A stretch of 64,000 nucleotides of DNA, taken from contig CAWDPO010000042.1 of assembly GCA_963804165.1 (NCBI GenBank), positions 85,219-149,218 of the forward strand, given 5' to 3'. How positions within the stretch are numbered: the first letter of the stretch is position 1; each line of letters starts with the position of its first letter. Of the stretch, positions 1,977 through 44,420 are shown in pieces. This DNA is from an uncultured delta proteobacterium (GTDB lineage: Bacteria > Desulfobacterota > Binatia > UBA9968). The position numbers were made by a program, and so were the translations under genes. Below the pieces are notes generated by a model, which did no database searches, had not been told where the DNA came from, and worked only from the letters and a program-made list of their open reading frames with translations.

Positions 1977-2637
1977 GAAAAAAATTGCCGTTCGAGTTGA
2001 ACCGGTGCTCGGTCTCACCGAGTGCGAACCGATGTAAACTCGAAAGAGGTCGCCGCGTTGAGCTCTCAGGTCTTGATAATTGGACCTACCCGCAGATTGA
2101 CGCTCGATTTCCACAGGTGTCGGTGCGATGAGCGCCATACTCCGTTTCTAGCCATTCCCAAGGCGTGTTTTCGGACCTGAGGGGTCGTTTGTGCGGGCTC
2201 CGAAATCCTCCGGCTCGCGGATAGGGGCCGCGGATCGACCAATTCTAGCGATAATCAACCCATAAATGGTTATATATTCATGGTTAATTCGTTGTGCTGG
2301 TTTGTCGGGCCAGAATCACGATTTCGCGACCTTTGATTGTGAAAATCCGCCACGAATCCGGATTGGTTGGTCAAAGGCCGAGGGCGCCCTGAGCGATTTC
2401 GGTTCGGATAACGGGGGGCACGCGATTCAACGCTCAGGGGGTCATTTCTCGAGTTATGCCGAAGAATAAGCAAAGGTTAACTTGCCTAGTTACCTCTAAG
2501 TCATTGATCTATTTAAATAAATTATAAGCAATATTGACCTGGAGTAAGTTTTCCGTTATAGGTAGAGAAGTTAGCATGCAGAATTTTCCACGTCTCCTTA
2601 AAGCGTCAAAGTTGGCAGGATGATAGAAGACCACTGA

Positions 2638-3660
2638 ATGGCGATTTATACCTCACTTTCGAAAAGGGACATTACCAGGCTCATCGATGAGTTTGCGCTG
2701 GGCGAGTTCGTGTCTTTCAGCGGAACGCGTACTGGCTCGGTAAATACCCACTATCTCATTGAGACAAAGCGCGCAAAATTTTTTGCCAAAATCGATGAAA
2801 TCAAAAGCGAAGTTGAGGTAAAACAAGAACTTGATCTATTACTGCATTTGAGAAAGCAAAATTTTCCATGTCTTCAGCCGCTCAAGACCAAAAGCGGCAG
2901 GTACCACCTGGAATTTCAAGGAAAGTGTGTCACCGTGACGCGCCATCTCGACGGCGTCGAATTGCCTGTGGAATCAATGACCGCTACGCACTTGAGTTCA
3001 TTAGGACATGCTCTTGCCAACTTGCATTTAATAGGTCGAAGCTACAAGAAAGGCATCGATAACCGATTCGGTTTCAACCGGATCGTTGCGATTTATCGCG
3101 ATGTGCGTCGGCAGTTGCCTTCACACCTGAAAAATATCGTCAGGGTTTTGGACGACGAGTTCTCATATTTGGAGAACTACCTCGATAATAACTTGCCAAA
3201 GGGAATCATTCACGGCGACTTGTTCCCCGATAACGTAAAATTCAAGGGGAACCGCCTGACCGGCGTGATGGATTTTGAAGCGGCTTGCCGGGGAAAGTTG
3301 ATCTACGACCTCGCCACCGCAGTTAATGCACTCTGCTTTCTCGACGACCGCTATCGCATCGACAGATTCGAAGCCTTGATCTCCGGCTACGAGAGCCTGC
3401 GGCCACTCTCACTGCCGGAATGGGATTCATTTCCGAACGAATTGCGCTTTTCGGCCTTGCGCTTTACCGTAACCCGCATTAAAGATTTTTATCTTCGCAG
3501 TGCAGATGACAGCCAGCGTGTCTATAAAGATTTCAAAGAATTTTATGACCGTTTGTTGATTTTACGACGTGAAAAAAGCGGCGGGATGGAAGACATTTTG
3601 TTAGCCATGGCGACCGGCTATGACTATCGCAAATATCAGAAATCCAAGCCCTCTAAATGA
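2638..3660 (+). CDS. thrB: Homoserine kinase type II (APH fold)
   Basis: MAIYT N-terminus, LPKGIIHGDLFPDNV, MDFEAAC and ALRFTVTR. Confidence 0.85.
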   Translation: MAIYTSLSKRDITRLIDEFALGEFVSFSGTRTGSVNTHYLIETKRAKFFAKIDEIKSEVEVKQELDLLLHLRKQNFPCLQPLKTKSGRYHLEFQGKCVTVTRHLDGVELPVESMTATHLSSLGHALANLHLIGRSYKKGIDNRFGFNRIVAIYRDVRRQLPSHLKNIVRVLDDEFSYLENYLDNNLPKGIIHGDLFPDNVKFKGNRLTGVMDFEAACRGKLIYDLATAVNALCFLDDRYRIDRFEALISGYESLRPLSLPEWDSFPNELRFSALRFTVTRIKDFYLRSADDSQRVYKDFKEFYDRLLILRREKSGGMEDILLAMATGYDYRKYQKSKPSK

Positions 3661-3675
3661 CTAATCAATTTTAGA

Positions 3676-4077
3676 TCAGCTTTGCTCGCCAGAGGACTCC
3701 TCCAGCAGACGTTTGACCTTTACCTGAGTATCTCGACGAATGAGGTACACCATCGCCGTTAACGTCAAAAGCGCGCCAATAATGAACAACGCCCTCCCTC
3801 CCGTCAAAACGATATAAAAAAAATTGAGTTTCACTCTCGCTCCGTTGTATTTCTCTCGATCTTCATTGATGCGCCGCAGCACTTCTTCGTTTTTTTGGTG
3901 ATCCAGTTGTTGAAAATTGCGGTAACTCTCTTCCAATCCGGTGCGCGCCGTCTTGTATAACAGAGCTTGGTACTTGGAGGATTCGATTGCCCCGACCGTC
4001 CAATTCCCAATGCCCATCACCAGGCAAACGATCCCTGCAACCATGAGATTACTTGAATACATTTCGCGCGCTTTCAC
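3676..4077 (-). CDS. Hypothetical two-TM membrane protein
   Basis: Two hydrophobic segments flanking a helical loop. Confidence 0.65.
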   Translation of the reverse strand: MKAREMYSSNLMVAGIVCLVMGIGNWTVGAIESSKYQALLYKTARTGLEESYRNFQQLDHQKNEEVLRRINEDREKYNGARVKLNFFYIVLTGGRALFIIGALLTLTAMVYLIRRDTQVKVKRLLEESSGEQS

Positions 4078-4179
4078 AATATTGCTTCTCCTCAGGCCAG
4101 AATACCGGGCATTGACCTTTTTTTCCAGCCATCCCGGTGATCATTGCACAGACCCACGGAGTGGCTTAGGATTCTCAAC

Positions 4180-4905
4180 ATGAGCCGTTATGTCGTCGGC
4201 GATATTCATGGCTGTGTGGACGAGCTTCGCCGTTTAATTGAGACGTTGCCGTTAGCGCGCGGCGACCGCGTGGTTTTTCTGGGTGACTACGTTGATCGCG
4301 GCCCGGATTCCTCAGGTGTAGTTTCCTACTTGATATCGCTTCAAAAGCAACGCAATGACATTGACCTCGTATTCCTGAAAGGAAACCATGAGGACATGTT
4401 TTTGTCCTACCTCGGGTTAAACGGCCGACACGGCGACATGTTCTTGATCAATGGCGGAAAGGCGACACTGGCTAGCTACGGCCTTACAGCGGACAGATTT
4501 TCGGCGCCGCAAGCGTTGGCGGCGATGCCGGCCGAGCACCTGGATTTTTTCGAAGGTCTCGAAAGGTACTATTCCATGGATTCGTTCCTGTGCGTACACG
4601 CCGGGATTCACCCGCAAAAATCTCTCGCGGATCAGACGGACGAGGAACTATTTTGGATCCGCAACACATTTATTTTCAACTCTCACGGCCTTCCCTACAC
4701 GGTTTTGTTCGGACACACTCCGCAGCCGACCGTTTTATACGATCTCCCCTACAAAGTTGGCTTAGACACCGGGCTAGTATACGGCAACATGTTGACATGT
4801 CTCGATGTAGATGAGAAAGTCCTCTACCAGATCAACCGAGGAAGGAAGAGCATTCATCGAACTTCCGTGCAGCGGAGGTGGAATCCGTCTGCGGCCCTTC
4901 CCTGA
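4180..4905 (+). CDS. Metallophosphoesterase (PPP/ApaH-like Ser/Thr phosphatase)
   Basis: GDIHG, GDYVDRG, GNHE, HAG, FGHTP and LDTG motifs. Confidence 0.92.
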   Translation: MSRYVVGDIHGCVDELRRLIETLPLARGDRVVFLGDYVDRGPDSSGVVSYLISLQKQRNDIDLVFLKGNHEDMFLSYLGLNGRHGDMFLINGGKATLASYGLTADRFSAPQALAAMPAEHLDFFEGLERYYSMDSFLCVHAGIHPQKSLADQTDEELFWIRNTFIFNSHGLPYTVLFGHTPQPTVLYDLPYKVGLDTGLVYGNMLTCLDVDEKVLYQINRGRKSIHRTSVQRRWNPSAALP

Positions 4906-4947
4906 CAGATTGATCTTTTCCCCAATTCATCAAAACTTGAATGCCTT

Positions 4948-5024
4948 GGCGGTGTAGCTCAGTTGGTCAGAGCACGCGGCTCATATCCGCGGCGTCGACA
5001 GTTCGAATCCGTCCACCGCCACCA
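4948..5024 (+). tRNA. tRNA-Met(CAT), probably elongator; 3' half supplied by the integrated element
   Basis: GGCGGTG acceptor stem, CGCGG-CTCATAT-CCGCG anticodon arm, TTCGAAT T-loop and encoded CCA; G1-C72 pair and no GGG/CCC anticodon stem, so not an initiator. Confidence 0.93.
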
Positions 5025-5027
5025 ATT
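4978..5027 (+). repeat. attL core (direct repeat with 20481-20530)
   Basis: 47/50 identical to 20481-20530 by manual alignment. Confidence 0.93.
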
Positions 5028-5090
5028 CTTCTCTCGGTAAGATCACGAATTCCATAGGTACTTTGCTGTGTTGCTAGCATCCTAGCCAAC

Positions 5091-6380
5091 TCAGCCATTT
5101 TTGCTTGAATGCTGTTTTGTACACTTTTTTGCCCCCAAGTTGGACGTTTTCAGACTTGCCCCCAAAGAAATTTTAGGCGACTCCCCAAGCCTGAGACCGC
5201 TATCTTTCATGCGCTCCTGCATCGCGCGCAGATACTTTGTTGTCGTCGTCAAGTTCGTGTGTCTCATCAAGCTCATCAGCACGCGCGGGTCATCTGGTCT
5301 GAACCGTGCTAGCGAAGTAATCGCGCATGTCCTTCGGTCGCAGCTTCACGCTCGGCTGAATATTGCTCGATCCACAGGCAAAGCAACCAATGCCTTCGTC
5401 GACGTTGACCGACCTACATTTCGAGCAGCAATGGATGCGCGAGACGGCTTCGATTCGTTTGCAGTCCCGGCAGTGGCGACGCTTGCCGATGTTGCCGCCC
5501 GAACAGTCCGTGCAGCGAGAAGTAAGCCGCTCGATCTTCTCGAACAGGCGCCGGCGCGAATAGATTTTTTTCCCTTGGTCTGAGCCGATCGGCCGGCAAA
5601 GACATAATCAGACATGCTCCCAGCCTTGTGCTTTTTGAGACTTTCAATCAATGCCGGCGCCAACGGAAGGTATGCGTCGGACTCGTCAGTCTTCGTGCCG
5701 CGGCAATGAAAATAACCTTCATCGAAGTTAATATCTTCCCATCGGAGCCGGTTCGCTTCGTCCTTCCGTAATCCGCTGAAACGTAGAAAATCAAAGTAAG
5801 CTCTATCGGCCGGATTCTCGATGCTCTCTGCCGCTCTTTCCACTGCGGGTAGATTTAGCGGCGCCTTCTTCGGTTTCGTGCTGCCGATGATGCTTGTATC
5901 GAGTGCATCAACAGGATTTTTCACGAGCAGGTTTTTTTCAATCGCCCAATTGAGCAGCGCCCGAAGGTTTGTCACGTCATGCCACACCGTTTTCGGCTTA
6001 ACGTTTCGCTCTCGCTGTATCACGAGCTTTTGGACCTGATCTGACGTAATGGATCCGATCGGCGTTGCCGCACCGAAGAACGGAATGATGATCTTGTCGA
6101 AGTTCCATCTCATGCCGTCGATTCGCCACCCGGAACGGCCTTTTTCTGCGGATTCCACGAGGTACGCGCTGACCACGGTTATCAGTGCCGTTGGCGGTAA
6201 CTCCGGCGTCTTGGGTCTGCTCGCCACCTCTGTCTTGAGCTCAATGAGTGCCGCCTTCGCCTCTTCCCGCGTTGCCCAGACGTAGCGCTTGTAAGTGCGC
6301 CCTTGTAGGCAAACCCTGTAACCCCAGCGGTCCCGCTCCGCCCGATACTCGATTCCGTTTCTCTTTTTTCTCTTTGCCAT
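5091..6380 (-). CDS. int: Tyrosine integrase, frameshifted at ~5570, ~5292 and possibly ~5200, with a four-CxxC insertion
   Basis: FSGLRKDEANRLRWEDI (box I R), GTKT (K), then in shifted frames KDMRDYFAS and LMRHTNLTTTTKY (H, Y). Confidence 0.9.
5130..5164 (+). promoter_or_regulatory. Putative integrase arm-type sites, left arm (TGCCCCCA x2)
   Basis: TGCCCCCA at 5130-5137 and 5157-5164; the same octamer occurs twice just inside attR. Confidence 0.7.
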
Positions 6381-6555
6381 CGTTCCCCCGCTGGTAGTGA
6401 ACGCGTAGATTTATATATGTGTCTACGTCCTCTTGTCGATAACGCCTAACGCCCTTTCCGGCGCCTACTCTTACGAACGGTATCCCGAGAGTTGCAACGG
6501 TTCGCTTTTTTACTTGCAGCTGCGCCGCGACTTGTCTGTCCGTGAGAAGGATCAA
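6241..6555 (-). CDS. Excisionase/Xis-like HTH protein
   Basis: LLTDRQVAAQLQVKKRTV...IPFVRVG...VRRYRQEDVD pattern, directly upstream of int. Confidence 0.75.
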   Translation of the reverse strand: MILLTDRQVAAQLQVKKRTVATLGIPFVRVGAGKGVRRYRQEDVDTYINLRVHYQRGNDGKEKKEKRNRVSGGAGPLGLQGLPTRAHLQALRLGNAGRGEGGTH

Positions 6556-6727
6556 CGCCCGCCTCCTTTGCGACGAACGAAATCAACAGCTCCATCGGCG
6601 GCGTGACGATCATCTCGCCCCGCTCCATGCGCGCAACCGAATTGCGGGTCATTCTTACCTTGGCCGCAAATTCGTGCTGCGTAACCCCCAATGCACGGCG
6701 AATGTCGCCTAGCTGTTTGCCGGTCAT
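6446..6727 (-). CDS. XRE-family HTH regulator
   Basis: LGDIRRALGVTQHEFAAKVRMTRNSVARMERGE. Confidence 0.88.
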   Translation of the reverse strand: MTGKQLGDIRRALGVTQHEFAAKVRMTRNSVARMERGEMIVTPPMELLISFVAKEAGVDPSHGQTSRGAAASKKANRCNSRDTVRKSRRRKGR

Positions 6728-6798: not shown

Positions 6799-8073
6799 TG
6801 TAGTAGCAACGTGATTATGACAGGGGCTAACGGCAACGTAATTATGTCAGGGTGGGAGGATGACAACCCTGACGATGCAAGACGAGAAGCGACTAGACGT
6901 AATACAACGAGTGAATCGAAGCGAGCTGACCGTGGTGCAAGCGGCACTGGTGATGGGACTAAGCGAACGGCAGTGTTACCGGATCAAAGCATGTGTCGGT
7001 AAAGCCGGAGCCAAGGGAATCGTTCACGGTAACCGCGGACGGCCCTGTAAACGCAAGACCAAGGAGAAGACGGTTAGACGTGTCTTGGAATTAGCCCGAG
7101 GTAAATACCAAGGCTTCAACGACCATCATCTGACCGAGAAGCTCAAAGAACAAGAACAGATCGAGCTCAGCCGTGAGAAAGTCCGCCGTATCCTTCGTGC
7201 CCACGGGATCGGCTCCCCCAAGAAGCGTCGCGGGATTAAGCACCGAAGCCGCAGAGAAAGACGGGCCAGTGAGGGGATGATGCTCCTGCCACGAGCAAAG
7301 TCATGGGAGCCTTTTTTGCCCCGGCCGAGAGTTCCTGGGGTTACTTCCATCTGTTCTCCGAGATCTTCAAGCAGCATGGAGTATCCCAGTCGATCTATAC
7401 GGACTGTCACTCGGTATTCTGGACCGATCGGGAACCGACGTTAGAGGAGCAGTTGATCAACAGAAAACCCACCACCGAAGTCGGTCGAGGCTTGGAAGAG
7501 CTCGGGGTGACCTTGATCCTAGCCCATTCCCCTCAGGCCAAGGGGAGAATCGAGAGACTGTGGAACACTTTCCAGGACCGGCTGGTCAGTGAGCTGCGGT
7601 TGGCCAGGGCCAAGAGCGTGCAACAGGCAACCGTGGTCCTGGATCGTTATCTCCCCGTGCATAACCGTAAGTTTGCTAAGCCCGCTAAAGCACAGCCGGC
7701 CTGGAGAAAAGTCAGTGCTCTTAAGATCGAACGAGATTTGTGTTTCAAACAACAGCGCACAGTGGCTAAGGACAACACGGTAACTTTCGAACGGACGGTT
7801 TTGCAGATCCCAAGACCTCGCCCTTTCGTTCTCACGCCAACAAAAGAGTCGAGGTCAACGTGATGTTGGACGGTGCGGTGGAGATTTTCTACAAGACTGA
7901 GAAAATCGCAACCTTCGATTCAAAAACAACGCACGCAATTGGCCTATATCGAACGATCGGAAAAAAGGAGGGGTTCCGCTATGGTCCGCTTTCTAGGCTG
8001 GCCATTCAACCTGAGGTGTCACCCTGACATTTTTACCTTGCTGTTAACATGACATATTGACGTTGCTACGACA
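6799..8073 (+). mobile_element. IS1202-family (ISNCY) insertion sequence with a 16-bp target-site duplication
   Basis: Long imperfect TIRs TGTAGTAGCAACGT.../...ACGTTGCTACGACA; GGCCATCAAATGTGGC duplicated at 6783-6798 and 8074-8089. Confidence 0.9.
6860..8027 (+). pseudogene. DDE transposase pseudogene (internal deletion ~7285, frameshift ~7812)
   Basis: HGNRGRP, YTDCHSVF and HSPQAKGRIERLWNTFQDRL motifs; the QxDGS...IDD segment expected between GMMLL and ATSKV is missing. Confidence 0.85.
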
Positions 8074-10199: not shown

Positions 10200-10328
10200 G
10201 TCAAACCGTCAAAACGATTTATGAGTTCGACACTTGAGTCGTTTTTTCATGTGTCAAATGGATTCCCCTTTTGACAGATAGAAAAATCACTTCAGTCTTT
10301 ATTCTTATTGCTGTCTTGACGGTTTGAC
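10200..10328. other. Putative replication origin of the element
   Basis: 13-bp inverted repeat GTCAAACCGTCAA (10200-10212)/TTGACGGTTTGAC (10316-10328) enclosing a TGTCAAA/TTTGACA pair and AT-rich DNA at the 3' end of the rep gene. Confidence 0.6.
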
Positions 10329-12357
10329 GGATAAATCTCGATATTATCGGGAAGGTAACGCGCGCGCAGCTCCTTGACCCATTCACGCCCGATGGAATAA
10401 CCCCTACTCTTGCCGTCTTTTGACGGCCTGGGGTATGCCCCAAACTTCTTTAACTGTCCAGCGAGCTTTCGCGTCGAATCGATCCAAGACAGTTCAGCCG
10501 TTACCCTCGCGAGTAGATCCGCCGATAGAACGAATATGGTTTCCTCATCCGGCTTTTCGTTGAGACATGCCTCTAAGACGGTAACGAGTCCGGAAAGCGT
10601 AGAGTCTTCCGACGCGGTGCCCTTCGTGCCGGCCATGTCGCGCAGTAGGTCGCAGAAGCGCTCAGTTACAGCACCGCGTCCGTTGGAAAACTCGCAATCT
10701 GAAAAGATGGCAATTGTTAGCAGCGGTTCAACGATGTCTAAAAATCTATCGTCAAGGTCCTTAAGTCTATCGGTTGTCGCCAAAATATCATCGATGCCGT
10801 CATATAAATCGGCGATTCCCTTCTCGCGTTCGGTTGCCCACAGCCGCAAGTCCGTCCGAAGCTTTTCTAATTCTCTGCCTTGGCGTCGGATCGTAAAACG
10901 TTCGACGGTCTCGCTCGCCGTCTTACGGCTCATCGTGACTAATAGACTACGATCGGCGAGCGTATCGCTAAGGCTGTTGATACCCGCCAACGCCTTAGGA
11001 CAAAACGCATTGAAGTAGATGACTTCAAATCTATCCTCTACTCTTTGGGCTCGCGGCACTTTCGCGCCGCTCTGGAATCCCGCGTTGAGCAGTCCCATGA
11101 CATTGCTAAATTTTTCCCTGTCCTGATTGCGTAGCGATTCAAGCTCATCCAACAGCATCGTCGCGCCGCTATCTGCCAGCCGGAAAATAACGGCTTCGCT
11201 GGCGTTGGATAGGCGCGGCGTGGCTTGTGCGGCAAGTTGGCCGATGATCTCAAGCACAAGGGTTTTCCCGCAGCGCAGTACAGGTGAGTTGAGATGCAAA
11301 TAGCCGAAGTAGGCGAACAAGCGGTGCAAGTAGGTTCCCATCACCCACAGCGCGAGCAATAGCGGATAGCGTTTTTCTCTAAAAAACACGTAGCGGGAAA
11401 AAATAGCTTCGAGCGTATCTATCAAGTCGCGCGTCCGCGGCACTGGTGGGTAAAGTTCGATCGGCGCCGCCGCTGCTATCGCTTGCTCTAGTGCCGCTGT
11501 GAATTGTGCTGCGTCTTTGCACGTCAGCCACAAAGCCCGCGGATCTTTCTCGGGTAGCGAGACCGCCTTAACCGTGCTTCGATACTCGGCGCCCTTTAGC
11601 GCCGCCGTAATGCTCGAAACGAACTGCTCGCCGGCGTTGCCCGGCTCTTGCACAATGACAATTTCAGGGAAGGGTACCAGGCATAGGACCATTTCCGGCT
11701 TGAAGTTCCCGGCGCCCGGTATTCCAAGCGCCGCAATTCCGCAATGGGTTAAAACATGAACATCGCTGGCACCCTCGACGACGACAAGCCGATCTTTAGT
11801 TTCCGGTAACTGCCAAAGGCCGTAGGGTAAAACCTTATCGCCCTTGCGCCACGAGAAGCGCTGATCTTTTTTGTCGCCCTTTCCAGCTTGTGCCGACGCT
11901 GCACTGATATAGTCGCGCCGCTTTCATCCTTGTAGGGAATCTCAATGCCGGCTTCGTCATTGGTGAGTGAAAAGGTCTCGAGTAGAAAATTCTCGGGTAA
12001 CGCGCAAAAGTCAGCATACTCTGCGACCGTCAACGTCTTGGCTTTTCGCCTCGGCTTTTCCTCGCTGGTATCAATCTTGAACTTGCGAGCAAGGTCCTTG
12101 GCTGCATCGACTGGTTCTATGAAAAGCTCACCAGCGAGCAATAGATCGATATTCGATCCACCTTTGTGGCAACCGAAGCACTTCCAGCGATTCGTTTCAG
12201 TGTTGATCTTGAATGATGGCGTTTTCTCGGAGTGAAATGGGCAAATCGTAACGAGATCACGGCCGGAATGATTTAGTTCCAGGTTCGGAAAATACTCTCG
12301 AACGACCGACTCTATGGGAATCGCTCTGATGCGCTCGAATAGATCGCCGTGACTCAT
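10292..12357 (-). CDS. Replication protein: CHC2 zinc finger + TOPRIM + DUF3631, one frameshift at ~11870
   Basis: CPFHSEKTPSF...WKCFGC; VVVEGASD in the shifted frame; SPVLRCGKT, LLDE, LLNAGF and DTLADRS. Confidence 0.85.
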
Positions 12358-17406: not shown

Positions 17407-17625
17407 ATGCCAAAGCGCACGACAAAGCAGCCGCATATGTATTCATTTAGCGTTCAATTTGAAGGCAAGAAATACGAAGCGAGCTACTCTATACAGTCTG
17501 GCGTCGTCACTGTTACTTCCGATTACGGCTCTCAATCAACTCATGCTGGCGGAAAAGCCGATTTAACTGCGCGCATGTTGCTCCGCGAAATCCTGGAGGG
17601 TGCGAAAGCTCGCGGTAAACTTTAA
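17407..17625 (+). CDS. Hypothetical protein
   Basis: 72-aa ORF with an AAAGG RBS. Confidence 0.55.
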   Translation: MPKRTTKQPHMYSFSVQFEGKKYEASYSIQSGVVTVTSDYGSQSTHAGGKADLTARMLLREILEGAKARGKL

Positions 17626-19743
17626 TTTGAATATGATGTAATCCTTGGCCGTCATGAGCTGCGAAAATACGGTTTCTATAAAATCCTTTGCTTTGGAGTC
17701 CATGAGTTACCCACATGTTGTATTCGCCGCACCTCAAAGTGTCTGTTGATCGTGAGTGGCGGCCCCCCGGTGGCGGCCCTCCCGGGTCGATTCGATCGAC
17801 GCAAAGACTGAACGCGCGCGCCACATAGGACCACAGCGTGCGCTTATCCCGTCTTTCATCTTCGTACGACCATCGCCCGCTTAGGGCTTCTACGAGTAAA
17901 CGCGCATTGCTCCTATCTATCTGAAGCGCCGGCTTCATTGTGAATGGCTGCGCCTTCCCGAAGACGTCAAGCATCGAATCTTTCCGAGTCTCCCACGGGT
18001 GACAAGCCGGGTCCCAGCTACCGCCGAGGCTGCTGTTAAGCATCCCGGCGAAGTCGCTTTGTGCTTGAGTCTCTAATTCCTCAACGACACCGAAGAGTAG
18101 CCGGCGGTCGTTAAATACCCATGGGCAATTAGCCACAAGAAACGGTTTTACGATTGTCTCAACGTGGCGCCGTAAGCTCATCTGCTCGTTCGCGAATGCC
18201 GCAAGAACAGTAATCGCGCCGTCGTCACTTTGAGCAATGACGGTTGCCGGCACTTCAAACGTTTGGCCGATGTAGACGGGTCCGCGAAAAGGCTCGATCG
18301 CTTCCGTTGGAACGTGCTGCGACAAATTGAATCCACGAGCTGCACGGCTACCGATCTCGCCGCGATGGGCCATGGCTGCAACGCTCGCCATTGCCAGCGC
18401 GACGATGGCGTCAATCTTCTTGCTGGCCTTCTCTTTGGCGATTCTCCAGCCGCGGGGGTTCTCAACGGCTACCGTTGAAAGCGCTTGCTGTCTCAAATCG
18501 TCCGCCGGGTAGATCTCGAGGTTTAGCCCGGTGAGTAGATCGAAAAGGGTTTGCCCCATGAGCGTGCAGTTGGTTTGTGTCTGGGAAAACTCACGGATAG
18601 GCACGCCGGCGGCCTGTAGCGTGGTGATCGATCGGTGCATCTGGTACGGATCGGCGAGTATTTCCACAAATCGCTACGCTCGTTAAGGTCGCGCAAGTCC
18701 TGTTCGACGGTGTCCTCAAGGTCAAGCGGCTGTGTCGGCGTAGGTTTCCAAATCTTGTGAGACACGAGAATCAAGCGCTCGCCGGCTTCGTCCCACTTGA
18801 GAGCTACGCGCGCGGCATTGTCGTGCTTGATACCGACGTCGACGCCAACAAATAACGGCTCGCGGTCGGTGATGCTCGGTCGATGCAGTTGATTGACGCA
18901 CGGGTCACACATTTCAGGCGTGATGAATGTTTCTTCAGCCACCGCCCATTGGTTACGGTGCAAGCGCAGATAGGTGCCTGGCCTGAGTGTCTTTTTCTGG
19001 CTGTCGTAGTACGCCTGCGTTTGCCACTTCATGCGCGGTTCGTGGTCCCAGTAGGCAAACAACCGCGCCTCACGGTTACAGTAGATCGGCAAATCAGGGT
19101 GAAGCTTTTCGCCTTGGCCTTCGGGGTGCTCGTCCTTGCTCACGACTTGTTTGTACAGGTCCCAAAGCAAAGCCGATTCGCCTTCAAAGCCGGCATAGGT
19201 GGTAACCAGCCGGATCGAATTACGCCGGGTAGGCACGGGCGTCAACTCTTCCCAAAGCCGGATGCTCGACTCGCTCGTATAGCCCCAAAGCTCGTCATAG
19301 CTCACAAGTCCATGGTTAGAGCCCGCGGCGCCGGCATAGTCACCGCTGATCGCCGTTGCTGTGGTTCCGTTGGCAAGAAATATAGTCTTGCTCTGCACCT
19401 CGGCTTCCCGCTGCAGCTCGGGGTTGTGCTTGATGATGCCTTCCATGGTCTTGAACACACGCGCGAGGGTTTGCTCAAGGTCGTTGGCGAGTATCAGGAT
19501 TTCATTCGGCGCCTCTTGTGTGAATCCCCAGGCAAGCGTTAACGCGCCGTTCAGCGTGGTCTTGCCGCTCTTCTTGATGCAGCTGTAGATGATCGTGTCC
19601 CACGGCAAGCGGCCGTCCTGATCGAAGTCAAAGGCAAGGCGTAAGATTTCCCGCTGCTCGTCTATCAACGCGAACGGTTCTCCCAGCTCGTTTTTCTTAA
19701 CGACTCTGTCAATGAAGGTGATAGGGGAAACGATGTTGCTCAC
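17513..19743 (-). CDS. terL: Terminase large subunit with a C-terminal extension (frameshift ~18665; 3' end uncertain)
   Basis: Walker A IKKSGKTT, Walker B VSYDELW, and nuclease motifs VGVDVG...D, ADPYQM and KIDAIVALAMA. Confidence 0.88.
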
Positions 19744-20400: not shown

Positions 20401-20413
20401 TTTGCCTCTTACT

Positions 20414-20434
20414 TGCCCCCAAGACATGCCCCCA
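20414..20434 (+). promoter_or_regulatory. Putative integrase arm-type sites, right arm (TGCCCCCA x2)
   Basis: TGCCCCCA at 20414-20421 and 20427-20434. Confidence 0.7.
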
Positions 20435-20438
20435 GAAT

Positions 20439-20483
20439 AAAAAAGCCATGAAGATCAACAACTTTCGTCGCTGTCATCATGGC
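20439..20483 (-). terminator. Intrinsic terminator abutting attR
   Basis: GCCATGA...CAGCGAC-GAAA-GTTGTTG...TCATGGC hairpin followed by T6 on the minus strand. Confidence 0.7.
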
Positions 20484-20530
20484 TCATATCCGCGGCGTCG
20501 AGAGTTCGAATCTCTCCACCGCCACCAATT
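20481..20530 (+). repeat. attR core: displaced 3' half of tRNA-Met
   Basis: Anticodon loop through CCA, with a perfect GAGAG/CTCTC T-stem and no 5' half. Confidence 0.93.
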
Positions 20531-39865: not shown

Positions 39866-40903
39866 TTGGTGTTAACGAAGGATAGAGAGAAGGTACTCCG
39901 CTTGGCAAAGACGCTCCTATTCGTTTTGTTTCTTCACCTGAGTTTCCCGTTCGCGTCGGCGGCGCAGGATGGCCACAGCCAAAAGTTGATTGAGGGCGCG
40001 AAAAAAGAGAACACCCTGGTCTGGTACACGTCGGCGAGCATCGAGGATGTCAAAGCGATTTTTACCGCGTTCAATAAGAAGTACCCTTTCATCAAGACGG
40101 ATTTTTATCGCGCCGGCTCGGCAAGCCTGTTCAACCGCATATTGAACGAAGCTCGCGTCGGCAAGGTCTTGTTCGACCTGATTGCCATTAGAGGCCTGGA
40201 AACACACCAGCTGGTGAAAGCGGGATTCTTGCAGCGCTATGTTTCTCCCGAGAGCACGGTGTATCCGGCCGGCTTCAAAGACGCGAAAGGCTATTGGGTT
40301 GATTATTTCGACGCCTACAACGTGATCGGCTATAACACCAAGCTCGTGTCCCGCGATCAGGCGCCGAAGAGTTGGGAAGATCTGCTCGACCCCAAATGGA
40401 AGGGCAAGATGGCTCTCGATGAAGAGAACTTCTCCTGGTACGGCGCCATGACGCAGAAATGGGGACGCGAAAAAACCCAGCGCTACATGCGGGCGCTGGC
40501 TAAACAGGATATCCAGCTGCGTAGCGGCCAGACCCTAATCGCGCAGCTGATGGCCGCGGGGGAGTTTTCGGTGGCGATGGTCCTGGCGCACCGGATCGAG
40601 AAAATGAAGGAACAAGGCGCGCCGGTGGAATGGGTCACGACGTTGGATCCGGTCACCGCCTCGCTGCACCCCATCGGGGTCGCCGCCAAGTCGGCGCATC
40701 CGAATGCCGCGAAGTTGTTCATCGATTTTATCCTGTCAAGAGAAGGACAGCAGCTCATGCTCTCTATCGAACGTACGCCCGCGAGACCGGGCATCGATAC
40801 AAAAATGGAAGCGCGAAAGCTGAAACTGTACGCCATTCCGCCCGAGCTGGGCGAGCACTACGATCAGTTCCAAAAAGAGTTCCGCGAGATCTTTGGCCGC
40901 TAA
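39866..40903 (+). CDS. ABC transporter substrate-binding protein (iron/thiamine-like cluster)
   Basis: Signal peptide, YNTKLV, PKSWEDLLDPKWKG and HPNAAKLFIDF. Confidence 0.88.
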   Translation: MVLTKDREKVLRLAKTLLFVLFLHLSFPFASAAQDGHSQKLIEGAKKENTLVWYTSASIEDVKAIFTAFNKKYPFIKTDFYRAGSASLFNRILNEARVGKVLFDLIAIRGLETHQLVKAGFLQRYVSPESTVYPAGFKDAKGYWVDYFDAYNVIGYNTKLVSRDQAPKSWEDLLDPKWKGKMALDEENFSWYGAMTQKWGREKTQRYMRALAKQDIQLRSGQTLIAQLMAAGEFSVAMVLAHRIEKMKEQGAPVEWVTTLDPVTASLHPIGVAAKSAHPNAAKLFIDFILSREGQQLMLSIERTPARPGIDTKMEARKLKLYAIPPELGEHYDQFQKEFREIFGR

Positions 40904-41274
40904 TAGTTTGCGCCAGATATCCAACATACAAAGAACGAGTAAATGAATTGTCGCGACAAATCGCTGCGCCTGGCGCGGTTCACAAGCTTCCGAAACTCAA
41001 GCGGGACAGCACGCCAAGATACTAAAAACATCGAGTAGTAGAACAGTCAGGTGAAAAACGCCGGTGCGATAGTCGTTTTCCTATCGGCATCGGTTCGCCT
41101 TCCAGCCATTGTCTTTATTAATTGATACTGTGGTATTTGCGAATACTTGCGGTGGAGGAACCGCCATGTGATCAGCAACGACACGTAGATAAAAATACCC
41201 AATTCTGCGTGTTTTGTAGTATTCGATATTTAGCGACACGAGCCGGACCTAGCGAGACCGAGGCGAATTCATGT

Positions 41275-42143
41275 ATGAATCAAAGCTTCACAACTTCAAG
41301 GCACGGTCGATTTGTGGCGAAAAATCGAGTGAAGTTAATAGACGCCAAATTGCCGGCGCAGCCTCTTTTCCGCACGCTGCGACTCGGCTTGATCAGCCAG
41401 CGGTTGGCCTTAGTCGTCGTGGTCATCGGTATTTGGTGGTTGTCATCGCTTTCGGTACCGCATTACATATTGCCCGGGCCGAGCCCGCGTCTGGGACGCT
41501 TTTCAGCTCATCGTCGCCAACGGCGACCTGTGGAATAATCTCATTATCACACTGTGGCGGGTGGCCGTAGGTTTCGTCGTCGCGGCGCTGGTCGGCCTGC
41601 CGTTTGGCATCGTGCTTGGAGCGAACAAGCGCGCCGGCGAGTTTTTCGAGCCCGTGATTCCGGTGCTAACACGGTCTCTTCGGCGATCTGGGCGATCTTC
41701 GCCATCATCTGGTTCGGTATTTCCAACGCGACCACTATATTCGTCGTTTTCATGACGGCCATGCCTTTGATCATCACCAATGTCTGGCAGGGCACGCGCA
41801 CGGTGAACGCCGATTTTATCGAGCTCGCCCAAGTGCTGCGCATGCCGCAATGGAAGGTCATGACAAAAATTTATCTGCCGACCATTCTCCCTTACTTTTT
41901 CTCGGGTGCCCGGCTTGCGTTCGGCTTCGGCTGGCGCGTGTCGTTGGTCGCCGAAACGATCGGCTCTTCCAGCGGCGTCGGCTATCGTCTCGGCAAGCAG
42001 CGGACTTGATCCGAACCGACCAGGTATTCGCCTGGACTTTGACTTTGGTGATCATGATGGCGGCAATCGAAATGGGGATGATGAAGCCGCTGGAAAATTA
42101 TCTCTTTCGCTGGAAAAAAGGACGCGGAAACACAATGAGCTGA
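41275..42143 (+). pseudogene. SsuC/TauC-like ABC permease split by ~3 frameshifts
   Basis: Fragments ILPGP, FVVAALVGLPFG, LPTILPYFFSGARLAFGFGWRVSLVAETIG in successive frames. Confidence 0.75.
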
Positions 42144-42194
42144 GAGGCGCGGCCAGAGCAAGAAAACCGGCTATCGAAAAATCGCATCCTCTGC

Positions 42195-43051
42195 ATGAAT
42201 CAGAACGACCCCGAGCAAACTTGTAACGAAGCGGAGCAAACGCCGCCGGCGATCCGGCTGAGCGGCGTCGAAAAACACTTCACCAACGGCGACCAGACAA
42301 TCGAGGTGCTGAAGAACGTCAATCTCACCGTCTCGCCCCAGGCGATCATCGGCTTGATCGGCGCATCCGGCTCGGGCAAGAGCACGCTGCTGAATATTAT
42401 TTCCGGCATCTTGAAACCCGACCGCGGCCAGGTTTGTATCTGCGGCGCGGCCAGCGAAGAGTTCAATGACTGGGGCTCCGTGAGCTACATGTTTCAAGAC
42501 GATCGTCTGCTGCCTTGGCGCACGGCCATCCGCAACGTCGAGTTCGCTCTGGAAGCCGGTTCCACCGCGAAAAAAGAACGCGCCCAACGCGCGCTCCAAG
42601 CGCTGCAGTTGGTCGAGCTGGAGAGTTTCGAGGAAGCGTTTCCCTATCAGCTTTCCGGCGGCATGCGCAGCCGAGTCGCGCTCGCGCGCAGCCTGGTGAC
42701 CGAGCCGCGCATTCTGCTGATGGACGAACCCTTTTCGCGGCTCGATGCGCAAACCCGCGAGCTCATGCATGAAGAGCTGCTGCGTATTCACGAACTCAAG
42801 CGCATGACCGTGGTCTTCGTCACCCACGATGTAGCCGAAGCCGTGCTGCTCGCCGACCGGTGGCGGTGATGTCGCCGCGGCCGGGAACAATCCGAGAAGT
42901 GGTGGACATCGCGCCGCCGCGGCCGCGGGATATTACTCAGCCGGAAGTGACTAAGCTACATTCAACGTCTTCGCGCGCTGATTTAATTGTCATGATGCAA
43001 GCGAGCCACGCTGCAGCGAATTTATCCTATCTTGTCATCCTTCATCCATGA
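42195..43051 (+). CDS. SsuB/TauB-like ABC ATPase (frameshift ~42862; 3' end approximate)
   Basis: [21 protein letters not shown] and VTHD. Confidence 0.85.
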
Positions 43052-43064
43052 ACAGGAGGCAAAG

Positions 43065-44051
43065 ATGAAACCAACAAAATGATTGTCGCGGTATTTGCTT
43101 TAGCGATGGCAGTGTCCGTTCCCGCGCAGCTGATCGCGCAAAAAATGAGCGTCGGCTACTGGACCAGCGGCTTTAGTTTGGGATTCGGCGCGGTGATGGA
43201 GCAAATGAAGTTCGCCGAAAATCAGGGTCTCAATGTCGAATGGGTAAAATTTGCCGAGGTCAACGGACCGACGCGCGCGATCGTGTCCAACGCCATCGAC
43301 GTCGCCTTTGCCGCGCCCTCGACCAACTCCATCGGCATCGCCGCCGACGGCGTGCCGGTAAAAATCGTACTCGCAACCCAGATCGCCGAAGCACAAATCG
43401 TCGTGCTCGACGGCTCGCCGGTCAAGATCGGTCGGCGAACTCAAGGGCAAGAAGATCGGCATGTCGCCGCCGGGAAGTGCGACCCACGCCATCGCCAGCG
43501 CGATCCTGGAACAGAATTTCGGTCTGAAACCAAAAGAATATAGCGTCGCGCCGGGAAACGAGGCCCAACTCGCGCAGTTTCTCAGTCAGAAGGAAATCGA
43601 CGCCGGTGTGCTCCGCTCCGTGACTCTTGCGCAGATTGAAGAGATCAAACTGCGCCGCTTGGCGAGCGTGGTCGACGAGTGGAAAAAACTCACCAAAGGA
43701 AATGCGCCGCCGATCCTCGCCGTGACCATCGTCTATAGCGATTATCTCGCCAAGAACCAGGAGCCGGTCGCGAAATTTATCGCCGCCACCCGCAACGCGC
43801 TGCAATTCGGCTCCAAAAACAAGCCGCGTGTCGCCGAGATATTACAGAAAGCCGCGAACATGAATGCCACCGACGCGCGCGCCTACGCTAACCAGTGGGA
43901 CGGCGCGTACATCGCGAGCTTCGAACCGGCCGACATCGCTTCGCTGAAGAGAATGTACGATATCGTCAAAGCCGCCGGCGGCGCTACCAAGGACGCGCCC
44001 GACAGCGCCTTTGACGCCGGACCTTACATGGGGGCGAAGAAGATTAAATAA
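43065..44051 (+). CDS. SsuA/NMT1-like substrate-binding protein (frameshifts ~43078 and ~43430)
   Basis: AGGAGG RBS, signal peptide and ELKGKKIGMSPPGSATH. Confidence 0.8.
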
Positions 44052-44420
44052 GCCGAGCGGCAGACGATCAGCCGACAAAGCACGCTAGAGCGCGGAAGGA
44101 CAAGTGTCTTTTCCGGATCCGATTGCTTGCCAAAACTATGCTGATCCGAATCTCTTCGAGCCCCTGCCGTGGGGGTTCTTCTCACTTTGGTCCGGCAGAC
44201 GCGCTCAAGTGTCTGCCCGTTCATCCAGCGTGGCCTGACAATCGGCGAGCTCGCGCTCACCGGCAGAGCGAACAATCCTATAGTTGTTATCCTTGGAAAC
44301 CCAAGATTCGTCGAGTTGGGGCTCCCGATAGTGCTGCGACACGAGCGCTCGTCGGCACGAAAGATGTTTCAAACCGCGGCGCCTTGTAGTCTCGTTCCGA
44401 TCCTTGATACAAACTAAAAT

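Follow-up and report, generated by a model that had tools for sequence, protein, structure and literature searches.

An exchangeable loop before box II of a tyrosine integrase family holds a predicted zinc-ribbon-like module with eight cysteines

We analysed a 64,000-nucleotide (nt) stretch from the genome of an uncultured Binatia bacterium (assembly GCA_963804165.1, contig CAWDPO010000042.1, positions 85,219 to 149,218; called the window throughout), in which a frame of the minus strand encodes eight closely spaced cysteines. With high confidence, this frame is the middle third of the gene of a lambda-Int-like tyrosine integrase, and the Cys-rich insert that it encodes, here termed Cys8, is a real part of that protein. 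The loop that holds the insert, just before the conserved box II, appears to be a hypervariable site with at least four alternative fillings (none, about 24 amino acids (aa), a 28-aa helical piece, and Cys8 in two variants), and these fillings appear to have been exchanged between near-identical integrase backbones. This swappable loop is a more notable result than the insert itself. As assembled, the window copy of the gene is unable to make a full-length integrase because of three single-base frame breaks. The explanation set out below is one that we hold, as a whole, with moderate confidence.

The assembled integrase gene consists of four frame pieces (Table 1). None of them has an internal stop in its own frame, and all the catalytic residues are present: Arg I (R205), the beta-hairpin Lys (K230), the Arg of KDMR, the His of MRHT and the Tyr of TTKYL. 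The open reading frame (ORF) called at 5346-6380 (344 aa, minus strand) is off-frame beyond K272. The middle frame extends from stop to stop over 5293-5607 of the minus strand, and its translation of 105 aa reads LCLCRPIGSDQGKKIYSRRRLFEKIERLTSRCTDCSGGNIGKRRHCRDCKRIEAVSRIHCCSKCRSVNVDEGIGCFACGSSNIQPSVKLRPKDMRDYFASTVQTR and then stops; the middle piece of the integrase ends in the start of box II, K-D-M-R-D-Y-F-A-S. Since this frame has no ATG, GTG or TTG start, it is missing from the list of ORFs, an absence that the original prediction had already remarked upon. That prediction placed four CxxC motifs directly before box II at 5374-5514, and these coordinates are exact, with the first Cys codon at 5512-5514 and the last at 5374-5376. 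In the C-terminal catalytic piece, His III lies at 5259-5261 and the catalytic Tyr at 5232-5234, after which the tail begins.

The proposal that the Cys-rich frame joins the integrase frames upstream and downstream of it is borne out by intact homologues. Nine of the 16 homologues fetched carry the same Cys-rich stretch within one open frame of 452-519 aa, three have a different stretch of 28 aa and four have none. The middle piece aligns with these 16 proteins over GKKIYSRRR...DYFASTVQT (alignment A1, in which K351 and R354 are invariant), and the N-terminal piece is 84-86% identical to P0002, P0004 and P0005 over residues 1-275. From an upstream anchor to box II the window measures 207 nt, exactly as the intact loci L004 and L007 do, so the insert itself is unbroken. 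A search of the organism's own genome found only one copy of the integrase. Elsewhere in that genome, the Cys-rich piece has a weak match on contig 3 at 40608-40799 (locus L002; E 0.007, 33% identity).

The assignment to the tyrosine integrases, likewise part of the original prediction, agrees with the matches to PF00589 on both the N-terminal piece (36.2 bits against a cut-off of 27.1, E 6.8e-9) and the homologues P0004, P0009, P0002 and P0043 (50.1, 59.5, 54.5 and 48.8 bits, respectively). A word-based search with residues 1-275 returned 42 proteins, and a full HMMER scan with P0004 returned 3582 matches at E<=1e-3, 153 of them at E<=1e-10 and 56 at E<=1e-30. The one-frame homologues are 403-519 aa long. 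In a larger alignment of 75 sequences (A2), R354 never varies, and R205, K230, H375 and Y384 hardly do. An AlphaFold model of the homologue P0004, built from this alignment, has a mean predicted local distance difference test (pLDDT) score of 87.5. It begins with an N-terminal domain composed of strands 11-14, 19-26 and 29-36 and helix 39-55 (pLDDT 88-97), followed by a helical core-binding domain and the catalytic domain. Foldseek matched the model to 67 chains of the PDB at E<=0.001, the best being full-length lambda Int (1z1b_A, E 3.4e-12), with Tn1549 Int, XerA, IntI4, XerH, Cre and XerD among the further matches; all matches listed are tyrosine recombinases or close relatives. In a profile search of solved structures, the match to 1z1b spans chain residues 21-342. 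Judged from the predicted structure, the integrase is a lambda-type arm-binding tyrosine recombinase with arm-binding, core-binding and catalytic domains. It is not recognised by the integron integrase model TIGR02249, which gave 22.7 bits on the window against a cut-off of 265.

We took a census of the fillings of the loop in 186 fetched proteins, leaving out that of the window, by aligning them to the insert-less homologue P0009; 109 of them span the site. The loop is unfilled in 54 of these, 13 have 3-12 extra residues, three have 22-25 aa, 18 have 28-29 aa, 20 have a Cys-rich insert of 53-57 aa, and one has another filling. The insert is not a fixed feature of the integrase; the site is hypervariable, and Cys8 is one among several modules that occur there. 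In a tree of 47 full-length relatives, inferred with insert and tail left out, the Cys state requires 7 changes, at least three of which are forced by well-supported branches, and all insert states together require 11. The Cys8 protein P0004 groups with P0002, P0005 and P0015, which have the 28-aa module; the Cys8 protein P0011 is sister to the insert-less P0014; and the sisters P0034 and P0043 hold the two different Cys8 variants.

The same pattern is visible in DNA. The closest DNA relative of the window, locus L008, holds the 28-aa module. It is 87.5% identical to the window over 2471-5322, which takes in the chromosomal flank, the tRNA gene and the 3' part of the integrase gene, and 81.9% identical over 5534-6573, which takes in the 5' part, while the block between them, 5338-5533, is unalignable. 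Directly upstream of the integrase gene lies a gene for an Xis-like protein, kept at this place in related loci. The window's Xis-like gene is 93% identical to that of L008 and 86% to that of the insert-less L003, compared with 70-82% for other Cys8 loci; it tracks the backbone rather than the insert. The Xis-like ORF and the first ~46 integrase codons (start 6380) overlap in different frames, an arrangement that recurs in related loci.

Among 65 related loci, a tRNA-Met(CAT) gene stands beside the integrase in 21 and a tRNA-Val(CAC) gene in 23, and in 21 there is no tRNA gene within the available sequence. All nine Cys8 loci that have a tRNA are at tRNA-Met, and so are the insert-less and 28-aa loci L003, L008 and L009. 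Since Cys8, 28-aa and insert-less relatives all occur at tRNA-Met(CAT), the insert does not choose the target gene; the original prediction had suggested that the module could alter DNA recognition or regulation. Across the related loci we checked whether the insert varies together with the Xis-like gene or the target tRNA, and it does with neither. A sister subclade with box II K-E-L-R-D-Y-F-A-T-Q and a 28-aa insert is placed in the same way at tRNA-Val(CAC) in 23 loci (L020-L027, L029, L030, L033, L035-L037, L044, L045, L049, L052-L054, L056, L057 and L060).

Within the 20 Cys-rich inserts, all four CxxC motifs are present in 18, and P0039 and P0046 have degenerate inserts. Sixteen intact homologues of full length (438-519 aa) have these four motifs together with K-D-[LM]-R within a single open frame. 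The consensus reads T-s-x-C-x-[DE]-C-x4-I-x-K-R-R-x-C-x-D-C-x-R-x-E-x-x-S-R-x-H-R-C-S-K-C-x-S-x-x-V-x-E-G-x-G-C-x-A-C-G-S-x-N, and the insert is net basic, with 7-13 Lys and Arg against 3-8 Asp and Glu. The second Cys8 variant (P0043, P0044, L011 and L019) is 3 residues shorter and only ~30% identical to the insert of the window, and has all eight Cys. Pairwise comparison of the window, L004 and L007 gave a ratio of non-synonymous to synonymous substitution rates (dN/dS) of 0.12-0.26 for the insert, and the Cys8 insert is under purifying selection. In the P0004 model it occupies residues 288-345 at a pLDDT of 92-97, with strands at 298-304, 310-312 and 327-333, and a model of the insert alone (pLDDT 93-96) has three predicted strands between the knuckles. 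The insert is predicted to consist of two zinc-knuckle pairs in a small beta-ribbon domain that resembles a zinc ribbon.

Several searches weigh against a closer assignment of this fold. The Pfam family PF12773 (DZR) matched residues 61-81 of the 105-aa piece with only 14.2 bits against 27.3 (E 0.051), and it had no match on P0004 at E<=1. The insert-only model had no Foldseek match at E<=1e-3, the best being RING and zinc-ribbon chains at E 0.14-0.8, and a VIA wide fold search of the insert gave weak zinc ribbons at best (L40e, Trf, Nob1 and MCM; Z <=3.5). The fold searches give no specific relative of the insert, and they do not imply that its fold is novel either. An ESM Atlas search with the insert gave no usable match, and a word search with the window insert alone gave one candidate, a fragment of the same integrase family. 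A profile of six inserts found 27 matches, 18 of which carry PF00589; the others are integrases or pieces of 117-268 aa that we take to be integrase fragments, and none of the 27 places the module outside this integrase family. Matches at E<=1e-50 were absent from all 300 other genomes in a sample of the same phylum. In species-representative genomes, a narrow search pattern found four loci, three in metagenome-assembled genomes (MAGs) of Candidatus Binatia and one in a Verrucomicrobiia MAG. The integrase family is one of soil bacteria and comes from mobile elements, and homologous proteins in public collections are labelled just 'integrase'.

The window integrase also lacks the His II of HxxR that is expected of PF00589 recombinases. 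The original prediction read KDMR in its place, and a structure profile alignment agrees: the Lys aligns with the His of XerA (4a8e, PHQLRH) and XerD (1a0p, PHVLRH). In this alignment, "...ieklaGi / kltpKdLRdyfA" is paired with XerA "GRKAGV-ELTPHQLRHSFA" and XerD "LAGIdseKLSPHVLRHAFA", which places the insert five to six residues ahead of the position of His II and shows that Lys replaces His II. Lys is found at the first box II position of 81 of the 109 relatives that span the site, including 20/20 proteins with the Cys insert, 17/18 with the 28-aa insert and 36/54 without an insert, whereas His occurs in 17/109, the more distant ones. The box II Lys is clade-wide and not linked to the insert.

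Type IB topoisomerases likewise have a Lys at this position. Among integrases, the SSV1-type proteins of archaea share it, with the pattern R...KxxR...Y, and proteins of the pNOB8 type have a Tyr there (PMC8371274). A classification published in 2021 gives a Tyr at the position for IntDes and weak conservation for IntBPP-1 (PMC8138268). In contrast to the SSV1-type integrases, the present family is bacterial, has an arm-type N-terminal domain, and has a gene that is not split by integration. Where the SSV1 type has its attachment site (attP) within the gene, the present gene is contiguous beside the tRNA gene, and the 45 solved-structure matches included no chain of an SSV1 integrase.

How the loop is placed suggests a role for the module. 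The insert lies in a loop with the last helix preceding box II on one side and the box II helix on the other, and the helix ahead of the loop corresponds to the XerA and XerD helix that bears ...AGI and probably to the major-groove helix J of Cre. We propose that the basic Cys8 module binds zinc (two ions) and touches DNA just outside the core-type site, where it would tune affinity, bending or synapsis and not target choice. Because the target, the candidate arm repeats described below and the Xis-like gene are the same with or without the module, it does not define the attachment (att) site. A role in DNA contact is our tentative choice among the possible functions. Consistent with it, helix J of Cre reads the major groove, and in Dre R282 and R284 of the following loop touch the minor groove and a phosphate (PMC7438526). 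Two points count against the proposal. The place of the module relative to DNA is deduced from homology and from Cre numbering, and neither the tRNA-Met target nor the Xis-like partner varies along with the insert, so that any DNA contact it makes would not be what defines the att site.

A second possibility, which we think somewhat doubtful, is that Cys8 is a protein-contact or switch module, making contacts between protomers in the synapse, docking an accessory factor, or acting as a zinc or redox switch. Whole modules have been swapped repeatedly at one surface loop of near-identical backbones, much as when a surface for interactions diversifies; insert types differ neither in target tRNA nor in candidate arm repeats; and the eight conserved Cys might respond to metal or to redox state. 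However, the Xis-like protein, the only obvious partner, tracks the backbone and not the insert, no candidate partner was identified, and the module is net basic and adjoins the DNA-reading helix. Still less probable is that a permissive loop tolerates the insert as a decoration that has no specific role in recombination. Insert-less relatives with the same tRNA target are common (54/109) and many different fillings are tolerated at the site, but a decoration is hard to reconcile with the low dN/dS, with the retention of eight Cys in 18/20 carriers and in two variants so far diverged, and with a module that is confidently predicted to be a folded unit.

We also asked what the interruptions in the window copy represent. 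The original prediction had assumed one frameshift, at a run of A; a break does lie at the A7 run, but one shift is insufficient, and reading through the gene needs three uncompensated single-base frame changes. A compensated pair of shifts is probably present in the integrase tail besides these three, because "AVSGLG" of the tail sits in a different frame from the neighbouring text; the tail is highly variable among homologues. Four soil-metagenome runs hold parts of the stretch, and of the three breaks their contigs span only that at 5296; none lies over 5494-5601, where the A-run joint is, or over the tail. At 5296, contig record 5 of the run X1 (226 nt, window 5245-5471, depth 3.5) is one base shorter, which restores the downstream joint so that it reads ASTVQTDDPRVLMSL as in the homologues; it otherwise differs from the window by a single synonymous change at 5277. 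Two more contigs of X1 match the window letter for letter (100%), one over 231 nt and one over 229 nt.

We judge real decay of a fixed island to be the likelier origin of the frame breaks, with assembly error as its main competitor. In 24 of the 65 related loci, the integrase is split over at least two frames, at varied positions, and many of the contig names of these loci point to short-read assemblers. Within one near-identical group the shifts are nested, with one in L010, two in L012, L013, L014 and L018, and three in L005 and L015, which suggests that decay of these integrases is widespread once they have integrated. The breaks in the window cluster in the integrase, an insertion sequence (IS) transposase, and an ATP-binding cassette (ABC) permease and its binding protein, and those in the permease and binding protein are never at a long homopolymer. 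By comparison, long ORFs totalling ~27 kb of the window seem to be whole, and rpoB, rpoC, dnaE and uvrA elsewhere in the genome (~14 kb) are without breaks. Three observations weigh against decay: every one of the three integrase breaks is at a run of one repeated base, the frame at 5296 is intact in a contig of X1, which comes from a near-identical population, and the genome is 80.9% complete though in just 46 contigs, which fits an indel-prone assembly.

These same observations, namely breaks at A7, CC and G5 runs, the frame-restoring base count of the X1 contig and the low completeness, are what would be expected if the integrase were intact in the organism and the three breaks were local consensus errors, a possibility that deserves serious weight. 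All catalytic residues are kept, the pieces contain no internal stops, and further genes of the window are frame-broken too. However, the breaks are unevenly spread, with single genes carrying three each next to long stretches that are whole; the breaks in the ABC genes are away from long runs; the nested frameshifts of related integrases come from short-read assemblies and are taken as real; and the X1 contig, to judge by its synonymous change at 5277, represents another allele rather than the same molecule. That break 1, at A_AAA_AAA, reflects programmed -1 ribosomal frameshifting or transcriptional slippage is extremely improbable, and this reading was rejected: although the zero-frame run GG[A AAA AAA] is a classic slippery heptamer and the required shift is -1, no A7 or A8 run occurs in any listed homologue locus with the G-K-K-I-Y motif (L003-L061), the intact ones of which simply read through, two more breaks of opposite sign would be left unexplained, and other broken relatives break at different positions.

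The integrase belongs to an integrative element inserted in a tRNA-Met gene, the only tRNA gene that ARAGORN found in the whole window. The 3' 47 nt of this gene (4978-5024) recur at 20481-20527 with 44/47 identical, and this direct repeat bounds an integrative island of ~15.5 kb in tRNA-Met. The three differences between the copies all lie in the T-stem, which is perfect in the copy at 20481-20527 (GAGAG/CTCTC) and has an A-C mismatch in the full tRNA gene (GACAG/CCGTC). The integrase tail extends ~87 residues past the catalytic Tyr, and its last ~19 codons are antisense of the tRNA-Met gene, inside which the protein ends in GGGGxxRTxDAADMSRVL-stop. The tRNA-encoded terminus DAADMSRVL (DSADMSRVL in P0007) is common to 13/16 aligned homologues and occurs at loci L003-L009, L011-L013 and others. 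Of the integrase gene, just the three final codons and the stop fall past the 47-nt att repeat; once excised, the element would therefore specify a C-terminus that differs slightly. Besides the two copies of TTGCCCCCAA in the integrase tail, similar TTGCCCCCAA-like copies lie at the other end of the island (20411-20421 and 20424-20434), and these repeats near both ends are candidate arm-type sites of the integrase. On the minus strand the TTGCCCCCAA copies encode the L-G-A repeats of the tail, and apparent conservation of the tail protein may hence partly be conservation of DNA sites.

Table 1. Positions of the features discussed, counted from the first letter of the window.
Feature	Position	Strand	Evidence or content
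tRNA-Met, anticodon CAT	4948-5024	+	ARAGORN; integration target, attL side
Whole integrase gene, read-through form	6380 down to 4967	-	Three-frame translation; adjoins tRNA-Met
Integrase N-terminal piece, M1-K272	5565-6380	-	Holds Arg I (R205, 5766-5768) and beta-hairpin Lys (K230, 5691-5693)
Integrase middle piece	5296-5571	-	Second frame: GKKIYSRRRLFEKIERLT, pre-box-II helix LFEKIERLT, Cys8 insert, KLRPKDMRDYFASTVQT
Cys8 insert proper, ~56 aa	5350-5520	-	S30-S86 of the 105-aa piece; alignment to insert-less homologues
K-D-M-R of box II	5323-5334	-	Lys for His II, plus Arg II
Integrase C-terminal catalytic piece	5133-5294	-	Frame of the N-terminal piece: DDPRVLMSLMRHTNLTTTTKYL; DDPRVLMSLMRHTNLTTTTKYLRAMQERMK at start of reading
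Integrase tail piece	4967-5134	-	Third frame: GQKSVQNSIQAKMAELARML ... GGGGRIRTVDAADMSRVL-stop
Frame break 1, A7 run (plus-strand T7)	5565-5571	-	Homologue-like G-K-K-I-Y-S needs one extra base
Frame break 2, CC on minus strand	5296-5297	-	One base surplus; without the extra base reads ASTVQTDDPRVLMSL as homologues do
Frame break 3, at or beside G5 run (plus-strand C5)	5132-5136	-	Tail reading resumes in the third frame
Two TTGCCCCCAA copies, 27 nt apart (5129-5138, 5156-5165)	5129-5165	+	Repeat search; inside integrase tail
Xis/AlpA-like helix-turn-helix (HTH) gene	6241-6555	-	PF12728 HTH_17, E 0.0013, under the curated cut-off
IS-type transposase	6860-7863	+	Two overlapping ORFs: HTH_28/HTH_29, then weak rve_3; looks frame-broken
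DUF3631 protein (466 aa) beside CHC2 primase-type zinc-finger protein (202 aa)	10292-12357	-	
Weak terminase-ATPase match	18523-19743		
Displaced tRNA-Met 3' part, attR side	20481-20527	+	Repeat search and alignment
ABC permease, BPD_transp_1	41100-42260	+	Three frame changes needed
NMT1/VitK2-type binding protein, adjoining the permease	43060-44060	+	One frame change needed

Besides the integrase and the Xis-like HTH protein, the island encodes an XRE-type HTH protein, a broken transposase, a DUF3631 protein, a CHC2 primase-type zinc-finger protein and a weak match to a terminase ATPase. The combination of DUF3631, CHC2 and terminase-like genes would be in keeping with a small integrative element of a satellite-like or P4-like kind. 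Two ORFs of 384 and 406 aa at 17513-19743, both on the minus strand and overlapping by ~145 nt, may be another frame-broken gene.

Genomic islands and prophages are moved chiefly by tyrosine integrases, which are also being engineered into tools for genome editing. Near-identical integrases that differ in one loop module and share the same target and an Xis-like partner amount to a ready-made experiment on the role of that module, and such a series would also mark a position in the catalytic domain that tolerates the insertion of a domain. In the literature searched, we found no description of a zinc-ribbon insert in the catalytic domain of a tyrosine recombinase. The word 'zinc' is absent from the main text of the 2021 classification, whose appendix figures on catalytic-domain insertions might bear on this point (PMC8138268).

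Of the known systems, lambda integrase (1z1b, 1z1g and 5j0n) is the closest in overall build. The present family shares with it the three-domain organisation, site-specific insertion, an Xis-like gene upstream and end repeats as candidate arm sites. It differs from lambda integrase in the Lys for His II, in the Cys8 module of 53-57 aa before box II and in the tail of ~87 residues after the Tyr, which runs antisense into the tRNA gene; its sequence identity to solved integrase chains is 15-18%. Zinc ribbons are known from other recombinases. In large serine integrases, a zinc ribbon serves att-site recognition; these enzymes belong to an unrelated catalytic class, and their ribbon forms a C-terminal domain of its own, with a coiled coil. 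We speculate that the loop before box II is a cassette-like specificity or control site, that its modules recombine between co-resident elements competing for tRNA-Met, and that Cys8 is a zinc-dependent clamp on flanking DNA that alters synapsis or directionality. This is an unlikely scenario on present grounds; if it were true, the Cys8 module would be to tyrosine integrases what the zinc-ribbon domain is to large serine integrases.

The nearest parallels to the insert itself come from tyrosine recombinases. The original prediction compared it with the insertion of integron integrases, and the comparison is apt as far as that insertion also sits in the catalytic core and reads DNA. Going by IntI1 numbering, integron I2 presumably lies at a different place in the domain from the Cys8 site, so the likeness is an analogy and not one of site. 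I2 is a clade-specific alpha-helix (PMC7790495, PMC8138268), and unlike Cys8 it has no Cys. In DIRS1-type recombinases, a zinc ribbon lies beside DNA-reading helices and its basic residues are predicted to add DNA contacts (PMC3537659); in contrast to Cys8, that ribbon is eukaryotic, belongs to the N-terminal domain and is single, with HxxxC and CxC motifs. Integrases of the IntTn916/Tn1549 group, among which Tn1549 Int is one of the best structural matches of the present family, have a subgroup-specific beta-stranded insertion in the catalytic domain (PMC8138268). Both integron I2 and the Tn916 beta-insertion turned out to shape the DNA substrate.

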